From the NCBI GenBank assembly GCA_963767835.1, contig CAVYFY010000029.1, positions 40,871-104,870 of the forward strand: 64,000 nucleotides of DNA. The letters are read 5' to 3'. The notes below the pieces were generated by a model. It was not told the DNA's origin, did no database searches, and saw nothing but the letters and a program-made list of their open reading frames with translations. This document shows, piece by piece, positions 5,164-16,428 of this stretch (position 1 is its first letter; every line of letters begins with the position of its first letter). The position numbers and the translations under genes were made by a program. The stretch comes from an uncultured Planctomycetota bacterium. GTDB lineage: Bacteria > Planctomycetota > Planctomycetia > Gemmatales > Gemmataceae.

Positions 5164-5901
5164 ATGCCGTTCCTCGACCTTGCCTGGCAAACGTTCCGTC
5201 CGGAAGAAGGATTCTACACGACGGAAGTTCAGACGCCGCGCCCGTTGCCGATCCGCACGTTCGCGCCGATCGGCTATGAGCCGCGCTATGCGTATCCGTT
5301 GATCGTGTTCCTGCACGGGCATGGAGGTAATGAGGAGCAAATCCTTCGGTTGGCGCCGCGTGTCAGCCGGCGCAATTACGTTTCCATCGGCCTGCGCGGC
5401 CCGGTCTGTCTCGGCCCCAACCGCAAGGGCTCGCTCGGCTTCTCCTGGGGGGACGCGAGCCATTTGGGCCTGATCGAGGATTATCTGTTGGGGGCGATCA
5501 CTGAGACGCGGCGGCATTATCACATTCATTCCGAGCGAATCTTCCTTGCCGGTTTTGCCGAGGGCGCCACGCTTGCGTATCGCATGGGTATGCTGTTTCC
5601 GGAAAAGCTCGGCGGCGTGATCGCCTTGAACGGCGCCATGCCGCGCGAGGATCGGCCGTTGTTGCGTTTGCCGGAAACGCGGGGCTTGCGTGTTTTCATC
5701 GGGCACGGCATCGCGAATTCAATTGTGCCGGCGACCCTGGTGCGTGCGGACCGCCGGTTGCTGTGGACGGCGGGCATCGACGTGGACATGAAGACCTATC
5801 CGACCAACCACCGCCTGCACGCCGACATGCTGCGCGACATCAATCGCTGGATCATCCGCCACTGCACCGGCGACCCCACGCCCGGCAATGAGCCGGGATG
5901 A
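5164..5901 (+). CDS. alpha/beta hydrolase of the phospholipase/carboxylesterase (PF02230-like) family with substituted catalytic triad
   Basis: LIVFLHGHGGNEE and the nucleophile elbow GFAEGA, where the family has GFSQG. HGIANSIVP replaces the family's HG..D..VP. Confidence 0.65.
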   Translation: MPFLDLAWQTFRPEEGFYTTEVQTPRPLPIRTFAPIGYEPRYAYPLIVFLHGHGGNEEQILRLAPRVSRRNYVSIGLRGPVCLGPNRKGSLGFSWGDASHLGLIEDYLLGAITETRRHYHIHSERIFLAGFAEGATLAYRMGMLFPEKLGGVIALNGAMPREDRPLLRLPETRGLRVFIGHGIANSIVPATLVRADRRLLWTAGIDVDMKTYPTNHRLHADMLRDINRWIIRHCTGDPTPGNEPG

Positions 5902-11988: not shown

Positions 11989-13731
11989 ATGTTCAAGAGA
12001 ATGGTGCTGGGCCTGTTGTTCATGCTGCTGCCGGGCGTCGCGCTGGGGCAGGGCGTGCAGGAAAGCTATCTGCCTGCCAAGAGCCAAATCTACTTCCGCT
12101 GGGACGGCATGCAGACCCATCGAGCCGCGTTCGACAAGACGGCGCTCGGCGTCATGATGAAGGGGGACACCGGCAAGTTCCTTGATGAACTGTGGGCCTT
12201 CGCTCACGAAAACCTGAAAAACGCTGCCCAGGCTGAGCCGAAGGTCGGCCCCTTGCTCAAGGATTTCACCAAGCTGCTCGGCACCATGCACACCCACGGC
12301 CTGGTGTTTGCTGTCGAGGTCGAACAAATCAAGCCGCAGCCGATGGTGCAGGCCGTCCTGGTGTTTCCGAAGGCCGCCGGCGAATCGGGCACCGTGATGC
12401 CGCTCATCCAGAAGATCGCCGAGGAGACCAAGGCCGATGTCAAGACGGTCAAAGTCGGTAAGCGCTTTGTCAATACGGTTGAAGTCGAATTGCTGAAGGT
12501 TGGCTGGTGGGGCCAGGGGAGCGACGCCGTCTTGTTCCTGGGCACAACCGATCCGGTCGCCTACGCCAGAGACATTGATTCCAAGAAAACCGGGCTGGCC
12601 GGCAATCCGCTTTACAAAAAGGTCGCGGGCTTCAAGGAATTTCCCACCGCCGCGCGCGGCTTCATCGACTTCAACAGCACCCTCAACATCATCGCCGACA
12701 TCGCTCCCCAGGCGGGCCCGATCATCGACGAGACCGGCCTGAAGGGGCTCAAAAGCATCAGTTTCATGTCCGGCTTCGACGGCCCGGCCGAGCGCTCGGT
12801 CGTGGACGTGGACATGCCTGGACCGCGCAAGGGCCTGCTCAGCTTGACCAGCCAGAAAAAGATCAGCCTCAAGAACCTTCCCGCGCTGCCTAACGACATC
12901 AGCGGCTTCAGTGCCGGCAGTGTCGCTTTCAACAAATCCTACGGCGAGTTCGTCAACCTCGCCCATGGCATCATCCGCGTTTTTGACGCCGACAAGGCCG
13001 ACGAAATCAAGGACGCGATCAAGAATTTCGAAGGCGCCGTCGGCGTGGATATCAGCCGCGATCTGTTCGGCAGCTTTGGCGATGTCATGGTTGCCTACAG
13101 CTCCGCGTCCGAAGGCATCCTCGGCACCGGCGCGGTCATCGCCATCCAGGTCAAGGACGGCAAGAAGATTGCCAGCACGCTCGACAAGCTGCTCAAAGGC
13201 ATCCCTGCCAACCCCCTCGGCGAGTTCGGCCTCAAGAGAAAGACCTATCGCGGCGGCGAAATCATTGAAATCGGCTCGAGCGGAAAATTAAACAGCCGCT
13301 TCGCCACCATCGGCCTCTACAAGGATTGGCTCATCTACGCCAGATATCCGCAGCCCATCAAGGGATTCATCATGCGTCAGGAAGGCGTTCTGCCGACGTG
13401 GAAGGCGGACCCTGCGCTCACCAAAATTCTGGCCCAGTTTCCCGAGGAATTCACGTCGATCACCGTTTCCGACCCCCGGCCGACCGTTCGCACAGTTTTG
13501 GCGGCGGCGCCGTTTGTCTTTGACACGATCAACTCCCTTGGCGCGTTTGCGCAATTAGGCGCCCAGTTCGGCGGCGGTGGCCCCGGATTCAATTACCGTC
13601 CGTTCGATATCGACACGATCCCGCACGCTCAGGAAGCGACTATGCATCTCTTCCCGAACGTAACCATCAGCACCGATGACGGCAAACGCATCCGCACGGA
13701 ATCGCGCAGCTCGATATCGCTGCCGTTCTGA
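11989..13731 (+). CDS. secreted hypothetical protein (580 aa)
   Basis: Signal peptide MFKRMVLGLLFMLLPGVALG and a continuous ORF with coding bias. I recognise no domain. Confidence 0.6.
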   Translation: MFKRMVLGLLFMLLPGVALGQGVQESYLPAKSQIYFRWDGMQTHRAAFDKTALGVMMKGDTGKFLDELWAFAHENLKNAAQAEPKVGPLLKDFTKLLGTMHTHGLVFAVEVEQIKPQPMVQAVLVFPKAAGESGTVMPLIQKIAEETKADVKTVKVGKRFVNTVEVELLKVGWWGQGSDAVLFLGTTDPVAYARDIDSKKTGLAGNPLYKKVAGFKEFPTAARGFIDFNSTLNIIADIAPQAGPIIDETGLKGLKSISFMSGFDGPAERSVVDVDMPGPRKGLLSLTSQKKISLKNLPALPNDISGFSAGSVAFNKSYGEFVNLAHGIIRVFDADKADEIKDAIKNFEGAVGVDISRDLFGSFGDVMVAYSSASEGILGTGAVIAIQVKDGKKIASTLDKLLKGIPANPLGEFGLKRKTYRGGEIIEIGSSGKLNSRFATIGLYKDWLIYARYPQPIKGFIMRQEGVLPTWKADPALTKILAQFPEEFTSITVSDPRPTVRTVLAAAPFVFDTINSLGAFAQLGAQFGGGGPGFNYRPFDIDTIPHAQEATMHLFPNVTISTDDGKRIRTESRSSISLPF

Positions 13732-13750
13732 TCGCGAAGATCCTTTTGAA

Positions 13751-15717
13751 ATCGGGTAGGAGGGGGAATTACTTCCCCCGTCCTCCCACACCACCGGACG
13801 TACTTTGCGTATCCGGCGGTTTCTGTTCTTGTTGATACCGGTCATACAGCTGGCTGAGGTTGGCCAAGCCCAAAGACTCGATCCAAGTCTGATTCATGGC
13901 GGTGTTGACGGCCGGACACGCCGACAGATGCCACCACCCCTTGTTCGACCCGGCGGTCATCCGCGCGTGGCGGACTGGAACGCCGTGGCTTTGCAAGAAG
14001 GCCGCGATCGTTCTGGTCCGTTTCAGTTGCTTCAACCGCACGCAGCGCAGCTTCCGACGAATCCAACTGTCCAATTCACGCAGCAAGGTCTTGCACTTCG
14101 CAAAACGGAAGTACGCGATCCAGCCCGTGAGAAAACTGTTGAGTTCGCCGGCCATCTCCTCGATTTCGATGCCTCGATTTCGACGAGTGATCTGCCGAAT
14201 GCGTTCCTTGACGCGTTCCTCACTCTTGGGCGCTGACTCCCAACTCCCCGCCGCGCAGAAGACGATAGCCGAGAAACTTGCGGTCCTCGACGTGTGCCAC
14301 GGCACTCTTCTCCCGATTGACGCGGAGCCGAAGTTTCCCTTCCAAGAACGCTGTCACCGACGCCAGCACCCGCTCGCCCGCTGCCTTCGACCGCATGTAG
14401 ATGTTGCAGTCGTCGGCATAGCGGCAGAAGCAGTGGCCACGCCGTTCCAGTTCCTTGTCCAGGTCGTCCAACAGCAGGTTCGCCAAGAGCGGCGAAAGCG
14501 GTCCGCCTTGCGGGGTCCCCTCGTGCCGAGCGACACACACGCCGTCTTGCATCATGCCCGCTTCCAGGAAGCGGCGAATGATCTTGAGCAGACGCTTGTC
14601 GCCGACACGCCGGGCCAATCGCGCCATCAGGATGTCATGGTTCACCCGGTCGAAGAATTTCTCCAGGTCCATGTCCACCACGATGGTTCGGCCCTCGGCC
14701 ACATACTCTTTCGCCTTGGCCAGAGCGGTGAATGCTCCGCGTCCCTTGCGAAAGCCATGGCTCGATGCCGAAAAGGTCGGGTCCAGAAGCGGGTCCAAAA
14801 CTTGCAGGATCGCCTGCTGCACCAAGCGGTCTACCACCGTCGGAATGCCCAACTGTCGCACTCCTCCGCCGGCCTTCGGGATTTGCACCCCGCGGATCGG
14901 CGACGGTTGATAACTCCCGTCGAGCAGCGAATCGGTGAATCCTTGCAGATGCTTGCGAACCCAGGGCAACAGTTCGCTGACGGTCATCCCGTCCACGCCT
15001 GCTGATCCTTTGTTCGCCCGCACGCGGTCAATTGCTTCGATCAAGTTCTGGGTCCGGGTCACCTCCTCCATCAGTCGGTCCGGCAAGGCACGTGCTTGGC
15101 CCGACGCCGCAGACGCTTGTGACTCCACGCACCCACCAGCTTCGGTCCCGCCGTCGCCAGTTGAGCCGGGGCGCAGCTCCTCCGCCTGCTCCGTAAACAG
15201 GAGCGTTTGGTAGTAGCTGCCTTGCTGTCGCTTCACGTCCATCGAGTCGTTCCAGACGGTCGCTTGCAAGAATAGATTCAGCCCTTCATCCGCTCTTGCG
15301 AGGCGGTTGGCCTCCCCGACGTGTGTTGCCCGCGCAGGATGGCACATCGCCGAACGAGCGGGTTACTACGGCCTCTGCTGACTTCTCCCTGGTCCATCCC
15401 ACGACGTTGCCGCCGCAGTAGTCCGGATCGACCGGACGGACGGGGAGATCTCCCAGGGTAAGTTGTGCATCCTTCGCTCGGTCTTCGCCGGATTTACCCG
15501 CGTCGCCTACGGAATGGCTATCAGGCGTCCCCGTCTCATGCCGGGTTACCCAACGACGCTGGCCTTGTATCCGATTTCTGTTCGTCGAATCCGAGTTGGG
15601 GGCATCGGCTTTCTTCAGATTCCGCCTCGCGACGGACACCCTTGCCTAGCCTTGCGGTTCGGGCCATCACCGCCCGCAGAGGACTTGCACCTCCTGAGAC
15701 ACAACATACCTGTGCAC
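13751..15717 (-). mobile_element. group II intron (IIC-like features), boundaries approximate within about 30 nt
   Basis: Encodes an RT/maturase. Putative domain V (accgccggatacgcaaagtacgtccggtggt, with a CGC triad) at 13796-13830 and domain VI with a bulged A at 13755-13789. A 5' GUGCA lies 6 nt after a hairpin at 15712-15717. Confidence 0.6.
13769..15071 (-). CDS. group II intron-encoded reverse transcriptase/maturase (IEP); frame break near 14225-14300
   Basis: RT motifs NKGSAGVDG, RQLGIPTVVDRLVQQA, FRKGRGAFTA, CFCRYADDCNIY; X/maturase domain IRRKLRCVRLKQLKRTRT...GWWHLS. Start taken at MEEVTRTQNL. The ORF tail reads through DV/DVI, so the true stop is uncertain. Confidence 0.75.
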
Positions 15718-15723
15718 AAGCAG

Positions 15724-15761
15724 AAGGCGTTGCACTCCGGTGCAACGCCTTCGATTTTTTT
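15724..15761 (+). terminator. canonical rho-independent terminator (12-bp GC stem, tccg loop, T7 tract), plausibly for gene 11989..13731 before the intron inserted
   Basis: aaggcgttgcac tccg gtgcaacgcctt cgattttttt read directly. Confidence 0.7.
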
Positions 15762-15784
15762 GGTAGCACTCCTCGATCTGGGCT

Positions 15785-16198
15785 TCAAAGTTCAATCAAC
15801 AAGTCGAACGCCCGATTCCTGCCCCAGCGGTAGATTCGAAAGTCGGTGTCGAGCGTCAAAATTCTCCCTGACCCCGTTTGCGTCGCGAGATCGACCAGGC
15901 AGGCGTCTGCCAGGTCCATTGGAACGTCGGCGTATTTCCTCATAAGGTAGGCAACGTCGGCGGCACGCGCGGAGAGCTTGAACGGCATTTGGTACGTGCC
16001 TTTTCGCACGTCATCAAGGATCGCGTCCGACGCCCCCGGCACGCGGCGCAGCAAGTAGCAACTCTCCATGATGACGGCTTCGCACGTGATGAGCGGCCCC
16101 GTCAGGTTCGTGACGATTCGCGCACAATGTTCGTGATAGTGTTCGGTTCGATCAAGAAAGGCGACAATGCAGCCTGTGTCTAAGAGCGTGGGTGTCAC
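15785..16198 (-). CDS. vapC: PIN-domain ribonuclease toxin (VapC family)
   Basis: N-terminal LLDTGCIVAFLD, then acidic residues at PIN positions (ESCYLL, TLDTDF). Overlaps the upstream small gene by 4 nt (GTGA). Confidence 0.7.
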   Translation of the reverse strand: MTPTLLDTGCIVAFLDRTEHYHEHCARIVTNLTGPLITCEAVIMESCYLLRRVPGASDAILDDVRKGTYQMPFKLSARAADVAYLMRKYADVPMDLADACLVDLATQTGSGRILTLDTDFRIYRWGRNRAFDLLIEL

Positions 16199-16428
16199 TT
16201 CCTGCCAAGCCCTTCGAGATGTTTCTTGTTTGAACCGAGGTCCGGGACTCCGGAGCAGAATTGCCCCATGCCAGTTATCTTAATCTTCCGGCGTTTGGTG
16301 GGCTTCTTCCCATTGGCCGGCCCGAGCGATTCTATCTGAACGCGCAATAATTGGCCAACCGGCAACTTCACCGGCTTCTCCGGCACGATGACCTTGCCGT
16401 CGAAATGTGCGATGATCGTTCGATTCAT
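16195..16428 (-). CDS. cognate antitoxin (VapB-like small DNA-binding protein)
   Basis: 77-aa ORF immediately upstream of and overlapping vapC, in the usual antitoxin-first operon order. Confidence 0.55.
   Translation of the reverse strand: MNRTIIAHFDGKVIVPEKPVKLPVGQLLRVQIESLGPANGKKPTKRRKIKITGMGQFCSGVPDLGSNKKHLEGLGRK

Follow-up and report, generated by a model that had tools for sequence, protein, structure and literature searches.

The window analysed here is a 64,000-nt stretch of contig CAVYFY010000029.1 from an uncultured planctomycete of the Gemmataceae. A conserved gene on its plus strand and a short toxin operon on its minus strand converge on a GC-rich hairpin, and between the first gene and the hairpin lies a minus-strand element that runs from 15717 to 13751. 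The features of the locus are as follows.

11989-13731, plus strand: conserved Planctomycete gene of 580 aa; the intron now lies between this gene and the hairpin with its T7 tract
13743-13750, minus strand: UUCAAAAG, start of the 3' exon and second half of the split U tract; IBS3 is U13750
13751-15717, minus strand: complete class C (IIC) group II intron of 1,967 nt, from 5' GUGCAC to 3' CCCGAU (Rfam models and homology to the L001 copy)
13753-13788, minus strand: domain VI, with bulged branch-point A13757 6 nt before the last intron base
13769-15242, minus strand: IEP gene (RT and maturase X) in two frames; likely start ATG at 15242 (MDVKRQQ...), stop UAA at 13771-13769
13790-13820, minus strand: domain V, with CGC triad (13818-13816), AC bulge (13801-13800) and shortened distal stem
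14235, minus strand: additional C, cause of the IEP frame break (GTCAGC in this copy, against GTAGC in L004 and GTGGC in L001 and L005)
15281-15421, minus strand: region of domains II-III, RF01998 (group-II-D1D4-1), 53 bits, E 4e-8
15462-15636, minus strand: domain I core, RF02001 (group-II-D1D4-3), 119.1 bits, E 7.9e-24
15534-15541, minus strand: EBS1 loop, GCAUGAGA, from 44 copies aligned with their 5' exons
15718-15722, minus strand: UGCUU, the 5 nt that end the 5' exon (IBS1 region) and also form the first half of the split minus-strand U tract
[quoted passage not shown]
15755-15761, plus strand: T7 tract of the plus-strand terminator (terminator scan)
15785-16428, minus strand: PIN-domain toxin gene (16198-15785; PIN 4.9e-12) and upstream 77-aa ORF (16428-16195)

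Identity and boundaries of the intron

The minus-strand element is a selfish retroelement and represents a typical bacterial group II intron of class C (IIC). A preliminary description had proposed such an intron with an RT/maturase and had named a covariance-model scan as the check, and the scan bears it out: RF02001 and RF01998 match domains I-IV, RF00029 matches domains V and VI at 13821-13751 with 39.9 bits (E 8e-6), 0.1 bit below its gathering score of 40, and domain VI has its bulged A, which together make up the six-domain ribozyme. In the covariance-model alignment C13818-G13817-C13816 sit at the positions of the AGC triad, as had been claimed; this CGC is unchanged in eight relatives, and the distal stem of domain V folds to only 2-3 bp. 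Replacement of AGC by CGC in the basal stem and a distal stem about 2 bp shorter are features of domain V in IIC introns (PMC1702495). Both hairpins described earlier exist, including A13757 in domain VI, although domain V had been placed about 10 nt away, at 13796-13830 rather than 13820-13790. The domain VI fold (13788-13753) has z = -5.9, and in the alignment of the eight relatives the pairing of domains V and VI is kept in 100% of cells, with compensatory changes at 7 pairs, a result matched by 0 of 500 shuffles. In the domain I core the epsilon' bulge has the sequence AGAAA (15614-15610), in place of the AGGAA that is usual in IIC introns (PMC1702495).

The boundaries are fixed by a 98.5%-identical copy (L001) at an unrelated site, where the intron follows a hairpin and UUUUUC. 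Homology between the two begins exactly at GUGCAC (15717), the 5' end that had been proposed from the sequence, and stops at 13749, two bases past the last intron base at 13751 (CCCGAU); the 3' exons of both copies start with TT. All ribozyme segments of the window copy are identical to those of L001. Near-identical copies occupy three different sites (window, L001 and L004), which hints indirectly at self-splicing and retromobility, and a search for a second copy within the window found none. The 3' end, AU, fits the AY consensus, whereas the 5' end, GUGCA, departs from GUGYG in its fifth base, A. L001, an independent insertion, likewise begins with GUGCA, whereas L004 begins with GUGCG.

The IEP and its broken reading frame

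Homologues of the IEP begin MDVERQQ, close to the likely start in the window. Its RVT_1 (6.7e-40) and GIIM (1.4e-19) domains are split over two frames, with no other domain and no endonuclease domain among the matches. Compared with solved structures, the protein is most similar to GsI-IIC RT (2.9e-132), followed by 7uim (4.9e-87), both of them IIC RTs, and more weakly to the other solved intron RTs, 6me0 (1.4e-39) and LtrA (1.8e-35). Ranked in this way by similarity to solved RTs, the IEP falls in the class C clade. Furthermore, an intact homologue, P0002, matches TIGR04416 above the cut-off, with 396.6 bits.

The internal frame break noticed earlier comes down to the extra C at 14235, which intact copies with 98.5% DNA identity (99% in the IEP) do not have. 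Since the window and L001 IEPs differ by 25 synonymous and only 4 nonsynonymous codon changes, the gene was under purifying selection until recently. The 1-nt insertion would have been gained after the intron arrived and would truncate the IEP behind its RT domain. Because of this frameshift the window copy is probably non-autonomous, and probably splices or moves only with an IEP supplied by an intact copy. The break might instead be a sequencing or assembly error in a copy that encodes an intact, autonomous IEP: the indel is of a single base, the ribozyme segments match L001 exactly, the rest of the ORF shows the synonymous excess given above, and there are long-read style contigs among the related assemblies. 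I hold this to be possible but rather unlikely, as the extra C lies outside a homopolymer run (GTCAGC) and decay of IEP genes is common among bacterial group II introns. A genuine frameshift is the reading that I retain.

The ORF also reads through domain V, as first reported, and its stop, UAA at 13771-13769, falls in the loop of domain VI. This is a feature of the whole sub-lineage, in which the pre-domain V stop codon is CAG, not TAG, and the resulting extension of 19 codons across domain V into the domain VI loop is kept in relatives down to 67% protein identity. The extension could reflect functional coupling rather than neutral loss of a stop codon, in which case ribosomes ending IEP synthesis would unwind the catalytic domains V and VI, so that on any one transcript translation would gate splicing; as a separate matter, the antisense read-through over 2 kb forced on the plus-strand gene could silence the copy. 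I regard these suggestions as a long shot.

The insertion site

Metagenomic contig L085, reached through P0124, an 82%-identical homologue of the 580-aa protein, carries the same two genes in convergent orientation, 83 nt apart, with an uninterrupted hairpin between them. Its orthologue of the 580-aa gene is 82% identical and that of the PIN gene 67%. The alignment of L085 with the window runs unbroken across the window junction, the orthologous hairpin (5750-5779) differs from that of the window by compensatory changes, and in both the stem is followed by GCUUUU, in a spacer that has otherwise diverged. L085 is an empty site for this insertion, of the kind that the preliminary description had suggested looking for in related genomes. 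A scan of the genome collection with the 580-aa protein returned only two loci: one in a Gemmataceae MAG (L002), rejected as an empty site because its downstream gene differs, and one in Singulisphaera (L003), rejected because it has no hairpin. An exact search of metagenome contigs with the 23-nt rejoined junction found nothing, and no record matched the 580-aa protein, the PIN protein or P0121 exactly.

The hairpin and T7 tract described earlier were recovered by the terminator scan on the plus strand (15723-15752). The intron does follow this stem-loop, at a distance of 5 nt (UGCUU) rather than 6. The flanks do not rebuild the stop codon of gene 11989-13731 when joined, as had been thought: that codon is whole and lies 19 nt ahead of the insertion point; with the intron removed it lies 24 nt, not 20, from the hairpin. 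On the intron-less minus strand the hairpin is followed by UGCUU/UUCAAAAGG (UGCUU/UUC; the slash marks the insertion point). The rebuilt minus strand has A at 6 of 8 positions before the stem and T at 5 of 8 after it, the latter by the rule used to call the terminator on the plus strand. The PIN operon lies upstream of the intron in the same orientation and is syntenic in L085; on the intron strand the PIN gene ends 32 nt before the hairpin, and the terminator scan found no other terminator-like site between the two.

On sequence, the site has the layout predicted for a bidirectional intrinsic terminator between convergent genes, and this arrangement is conserved in L085. Relative to the 580-aa gene and the stronger T tract the intron runs antisense; relative to the PIN operon it lies in sense behind a stem-loop, the orientation usual for IIC introns. 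The preliminary description had stressed that the intron is antisense to the T tract; the T7 tract is indeed on the opposite strand, but the placement is no anomaly, because the hairpin lies between convergent genes, the PIN operon is in sense with the intron, and related introns often occupy bidirectional sites. I am highly confident that a IIC intron inserted here, in the orientation of the PIN-toxin operon, at an intergenic hairpin common to two convergent genes. My literature search on group II introns at bidirectional terminators gave nothing relevant.

In IIC introns IBS1 and EBS1 are expected to pair over 3-4 bp, and IBS3 with EBS3. Among 44 copies the 4 nt after GC in the EBS1 loop show covariation with the final 4 nt of the 5' exon. 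The window copy pairs weakly in this register (AUGA), at two of four positions with GCUU, and three of four pairs would need the register GAGA, shifted by 2 nt. All three copies of this intron type have U as IBS3. Nearly all of about 47 related copies lie 0-8 nt behind a stem-loop. The 26 copies with a perfect stem core divide into 10 sense-only, 7 bidirectional (window included), 4 antisense-only and 5 with neither layout, counts that are approximate because the perfect-stem classifier missed 8 imperfect-stem sites and misfiled one (L058) as antisense-only.

Alternatively, the hairpin terminates the plus-strand gene only and the insertion is truly antisense, the stem-loop having served the intron as a structure and nothing more; no transcription unit on the intron strand would then include it, and it would rely on spurious transcription. 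This would account for the confinement of the strong T7 tract to the plus strand, for a minus-strand tail (UGCUUUUC) that is a poor U tract interrupted by GC, and for the terminator scan's failure to call the minus strand of L085. Related introns do occur at sites with an A tract only (L023, L033 and L039), and IIC introns have been reported at "other inverted repeats" and at attC (PMC1702495, PMC4424553). However, the PIN operon is co-oriented and ends 32 nt short of the hairpin with no intervening terminator-like site, GCUUUU has been conserved between the window and L085 in a diverged spacer, and the mechanism of insertion would be identical in both cases. I consider a purely antisense site unlikely, and prefer a hairpin shared by the two genes.

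Two other explanations have next to no standing. A programmed +1 frameshift could yield a full-length IEP, since the two frames overlap and GIIM continues directly in the second, but it is rejected because intact relatives (67-99% identity) have a single uninterrupted ORF across this point; moreover, there is no conserved slippery motif and the extra base is absent from L001, L004 and L005. That the RT is a retron, DGR or other non-intron RT lying beside hairpins by chance has only weak secondary matches to retron and Drt models in its favour, all far under their cut-offs, and is refuted by the full domain I-VI ribozyme matches that flank the ORF, by the GIIM domain, by the TIGR04416 match above cut-off and by precise element boundaries at two independent sites.

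Discussion

The locus adds a Planctomycete member to the IIC introns already known. Like B.h.I1 of Bacillus halodurans, GsI-IIC of Geobacillus stearothermophilus and O.i.I1, it has a CGC triad in a shortened domain V, a short EBS1 loop with a stem-loop where an IBS2 would be expected, and a position a few nucleotides behind a GC-rich hairpin (in those introns, intrinsic terminators); like them it is compact (about 1.9-2.0 kb), multi-copy and of low sequence specificity. Its RT/maturase lacks an endonuclease domain, like that of GsI-IIC, with which it aligns end to end. Unlike these introns, the window copy resides in a Gemmataceae-like Planctomycete, begins with GUGCA instead of GUGYG, has AGAAA in place of AGGAA at epsilon', and carries an ORF that has no stop before domain V and is 19 codons longer, reaching the domain VI loop. 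It also differs from them in its frameshifted IEP and in a target whose stronger T tract is on the opposite strand.

Introns of the IIC-attC type are oriented against the transcription of neighbouring cassette genes. These introns, among them S.ma.I2, insert at integron attC sites (PMC4424553) and resemble the window intron in belonging to class IIC and in recognising stem-loops in DNA, not terminators in themselves. There is no attC, integron or bulged imperfect repeat at the locus, where the intron entered a perfect hairpin of the terminator type that lies between chromosomal genes.

The likely course of insertion can be drawn from what has been published on IIC introns, B.h.I1 among them (PMC1702495, PMC4424553, PMC7306698, PMC8643678) together with general background knowledge. 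The intron RNP would have recognised the DNA stem-loop, an IBS1 of very few bases (about 3 nt of ...CUU) and the U of IBS3, and would have reverse spliced 5 nt behind the stem. As the IEP has no endonuclease domain, the intron would then have been copied into DNA with a primer from the replication fork. The strand of the stronger T tract would be secondary, because the perfect hairpin forms on either strand. Insertion split the weaker minus-strand U tract (UGCUU/UUC) and, for the plus-strand gene, put another 1,967 nt between its stop codon and the hairpin with the T7 tract, so that transcripts of the 580-aa gene would have to cross the intron in antisense to reach their terminator.

Beyond annotation the finding is of little importance, and its value lies in documenting a IIC intron from a Planctomycete together with an empty site. 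It shows by a concrete case that in IIC introns the stem-loop and a few bases decide the strand and T-tract strength does not, and thus that insertion at a shared terminator can part a convergent gene from its terminator.

The intron and its class

A covariance-model scan of the window with Rfam, the check proposed in the preliminary description, and a direct reading of the minus strand of 13600-15900 together place DI-DIV and DV/DVI of a group II ribozyme on the minus strand.

15636-15462, minus strand: RF02001 (group-II-D1D4-3), full-length match, 119 bits, E 7.9e-24
15421-15281, minus strand: RF01998 (D1D4-1), 53 bits
13821-13751, minus strand: RF00029 (DV/DVI), 39.9 bits against a gathering score of 40, E 8e-6

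Folded separately, the last 75 nt of the intron (z = -5.9) give a DV at 13820-13790 and a DVI at 13788-13753. In DV the basal helix has 10 bp, AC is bulged at 13801-13800 and the distal stem is just 2-3 bp long; in DVI the bulged A13757 stands 6 nt from the last intron base. The DVI coordinates proposed previously are correct, as is the presence of DV, the range of which had been placed about 10 nt off. When the window was aligned with seven relatives, standard pairs filled 189 of 189 DV/DVI pair cells, and compensatory changes occurred at seven pairs, a result matched by none of 500 shuffles.

A second copy at an unrelated site (L001, ENA ERZ25039522) is 98.5% identical with one gap. Its similarity to the window begins exactly at 15717 (GUGCAC) and ends at 13749, two bases beyond the final intron base 13751 (…CCCGAU), both 3' exons starting with TT; these limits set the intron at 15717 to 13751, 1,967 nt. 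A search of the whole window found no further copies. With A as its fifth base, the GUGCAC 5' end (15712-15717, minus strand) falls one base short of that in the close relatives L004 (GUGCGCC) and L005 (GUGUGCC); since it also occurs at the independent L001 site, the variant was apparently mobile. The epsilon' bulge (15610-15614, minus strand) reads AGAAA, where AGGAA is highly conserved among IIC introns (PMC1702495).

Toor, Robart, Zimmerly and colleagues (PMC1702495) describe IIC introns as having a DV distal stem 2 bp shorter than that of IIA and IIB, CGC instead of AGC, an IBS1-EBS1 pairing of just 3-4 bp without EBS2, and a terminator stem-loop at the place of IBS2. The window intron shares the short distal stem, the stem-loop and the CGC triad (C13818, G13817 and C13816 at the AGC positions of the RF00029 alignment), which the preliminary description had named as a IIC hallmark and which this source bears out. 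RVT_1 (6.7e-40) and GIIM, the group II maturase domain (1.4e-19), lie in different frames of the intron ORF, in which a domain search found no endonuclease domain.

Comparison of the frame-repaired intron-encoded protein (IEP) against solved structures
GsI-IIC RT (6ar1), IIC: 2.9e-132, aligned over residues 57-472
7uim intron RT, IIC: 4.9e-87
6me0, other solved intron RT: 1.4e-39
LtrA, other solved intron RT: 1.8e-35

The alternative of a retron or DGR was checked: retron and Drt RTs score below all of these intron RTs, and an intact homologue (P0002) scores 396.6 bits against TIGR04416, the NCBIfam equivalog for group II intron RT/maturases (cut-off 300). Judged by its ribozyme models, RT similarity, CGC triad and stem-loop, the element is a class C (IIC) intron, as first proposed.

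The intron-encoded protein

The reported frame break is present in the sequence: the window (GGGAGTCAGCGCCC) carries a single extra C at 14235, outside any homopolymer, relative to L004 (GGGAGTAGCGCCC), L001 (GGGGGTGGCGCCC) and L005 (GGGAGTGGCGCCC), and 99%-identical proteins (P0001 and P0002, 525 aa) are intact. With the extra base removed, the window and L001 ORFs differ in 29 codons, 25 of them synonymously, which indicates that purifying selection acted on the IEP until a short time ago. Either an assembly error or an inactivating mutation of recent date accounts for the frameshift, and the window copy is probably defective. All 30 nucleotide differences from L001 fall within intron positions 542-1514 (14204-15176), all in the ORF, and the ribozyme segments are identical. 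Half of them (15/30) lie in about 130 nt (densest at 14502-14630), whereas the outermost 541 nt on the 5' side and 453 nt on the 3' side show no difference, a patchiness suggestive of gene conversion or recombination among copies of the intron.

The ORF does read through DV, as had been noticed: its frame runs …CAG AAA CCG CCG GAU ACG … GGG AAG UAA and stops at 13771-13769, in the GUAA loop of DVI. The codon directly before DV is CAG in the window and TAG in relatives such as L013, and 471-aa homologues (e.g. P0108) stop at that position. The 489-490-aa homologues, with identity down to 67%, all end in KPPDT-STSGGVGGRG, the translated DV/DVI. These shared ends make the extension a lineage feature, arising from the absent stop before DV, and its amino-acid conservation follows from the near-invariant underlying RNA; it may have a function, but the data require none.

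Exon recognition

Across the family, the four bases after GC in a DI loop, GC-NNNN (window 15541-15534, GCAUGAGA), covary with the last four of the 5' exon (loop/exon ACCA/UGGU in L026, AUUU/AAAU in L039, UAAC/GUUA in L020, CAUAA/UUAUG in L081, AAAG/CUUU in L043), and by this covariation the loop is EBS1. The window intron fits that register poorly (AUGA against GCUU, 2/4 pairs). A register two bases further (GAGA) better fits the window-type intron, pairing at three of four positions with the window (5' exon end GCUU), four of four with L001 (UUUC) and three of four with L004 (UUCU). IBS3, the first base of the 3' exon, is U in all three.

The target site

11989-13731, plus strand: gene for a 580-aa protein
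15723-15752: 13-bp hairpin, followed on the plus strand by GATTTTTTT (promoter/terminator scan)
16198-15785, minus strand: PIN-domain toxin gene, 137 aa (PIN 4.9e-12)
16428-16195, minus strand: small upstream ORF, 77 aa
16482-17426, minus strand: DUF1559 (SBP_bac_10) protein gene

The preliminary description took the hairpin to terminate the plus-strand gene only, but the flanking genes are convergent and, on the strand of the intron, the PIN gene ends 32 nt upstream of the hairpin. Excising the intron gives a minus strand of …ACCAAAAAAAUC–hairpin–UGCUU|UUCAAAAGG, with A at 6/8 bases before the stem and T at 5/8 after it, the T count being enough for the scan tool's criterion; given these A- and T-rich flanks, the reconstructed site resembles a terminator that works in both directions. 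Of its two tracts the intron occupies the weaker one, the U tract of the minus strand; it is in sense relative to the PIN operon, and its antisense orientation to the other gene is not unusual. It does follow the hairpin closely, although the gap is 5 nt (UGCUU) rather than the 6 nt first given. Nor does joining the flanks rebuild a stop codon, since the plus-strand gene keeps its own, undamaged, at 13729-13731, 19 nt ahead of the insertion point. The toxin gene and its upstream ORF, which has no match in Pfam or NCBIfam, overlap by 4 nt as a VapBC-like pair.

The empty site sought in relatives was found in a metagenomic contig (L085, JGI 3300086552, 57.5 kb) reached through homologues of the 580-aa protein. 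Exact matching of the rejoined junction gave no hit, and two genome-collection loci with orthologs of the 580-aa gene (Gemmataceae, Singulisphaera) were rejected as empty sites, having no synteny. These orthologs and the DUF1559 protein gene of the window agree with a Planctomycete as the source.

L085 4001-5725, plus strand: ortholog of the 580-aa gene, 82% identical
L085 5750-5779: 12-bp hairpin, then a nine-T run
L085 5809-6222, minus strand: 137-aa PIN gene, 67% identical

The two genes are convergent, with 83 nt between them, and the alignment is uninterrupted across the junction (window TTTTGAA|AAGCAGAAGGCG, L085 ATTTCAAAAGCTAAAGGCG). The PIN pair is syntenic (L085 5809-6599). Stem sequences differ with pairing kept (L085 AAAGGCGTTCC…/GGAACGCCTTT versus window GAAGGCGTTGCAC…/GTGCAACGCCTTC); GCUUUU after the minus-strand stem is the same in both, whereas adjacent spacer bases have diverged. 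AAAAGC and the T tract beside the hairpin are likewise kept. Stem-preserving changes and kept flanking tracts are consistent with a selected terminator. The intron-free state of this relative makes the intron an insertion in the window's lineage.

Target sites across the family

The comparison covered 80 related loci, with intron ends placed by nhmmer and a 5'-end motif. About 47 copies have a usable 5' flank, and in nearly all of these a stem-loop lies 0-8 nt upstream, usually followed by Ts; at the L001 site CCACCTGCTG…CAGCAGGTGG plus TTTTTC precedes the intron.

Reconstructed empty sites under a stricter, perfect-stem classifier
Sense-only: 10
Bidirectional, including the window: 7
A-tract-only ("antisense-only"): 4 (L023, L033, L039 and the misfiled L058)
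Neither tract: 5
Missed, stem imperfect: 8

The constant feature is the stem-loop, not the T tract, and the window's configuration is common in its own intron family. Reviews agree in general terms that the DNA targets of IIC introns are stem-loops, in most cases those of terminators and occasionally other inverted repeats or attC sites (PMC1702495, PMC4424553, PMC7306698, PMC8643678). Related IIC introns also stand in head-to-tail tandem: in L005 (414-2379 and 2381-2454) the second copy (GTGTGCCAGG...) starts one base past the end of the first, in L032 the 3' exon (after 2436) opens directly with GTGCGCCCGGCA, and in L081 it is (after 2044) T plus GCGCCAGGCAT-like sequence. DVI plus a few following bases may mimic the hairpin target.

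By analogy with other endonuclease-less IIC introns, the intron most likely entered by reverse splicing into single-stranded DNA with the stem-loop folded, after which a replication fork would have supplied the primer for cDNA synthesis. Insertion would have left the minus strand with a poorer U tract (UGCUUGUG), and PIN-operon transcription may thereby run on into the intron more readily. The insertion would also have displaced the hairpin and T7 tract 1,967 nt from the plus-strand gene; as a terminator scan found no other plus-strand terminator-like site inside the intron, transcripts of the 580-aa gene probably run antisense across it. Overall, the original observation is upheld with small coordinate corrections: this is a well-known kind of element, in an ordinary orientation, in a Gemmataceae-like Planctomycete.
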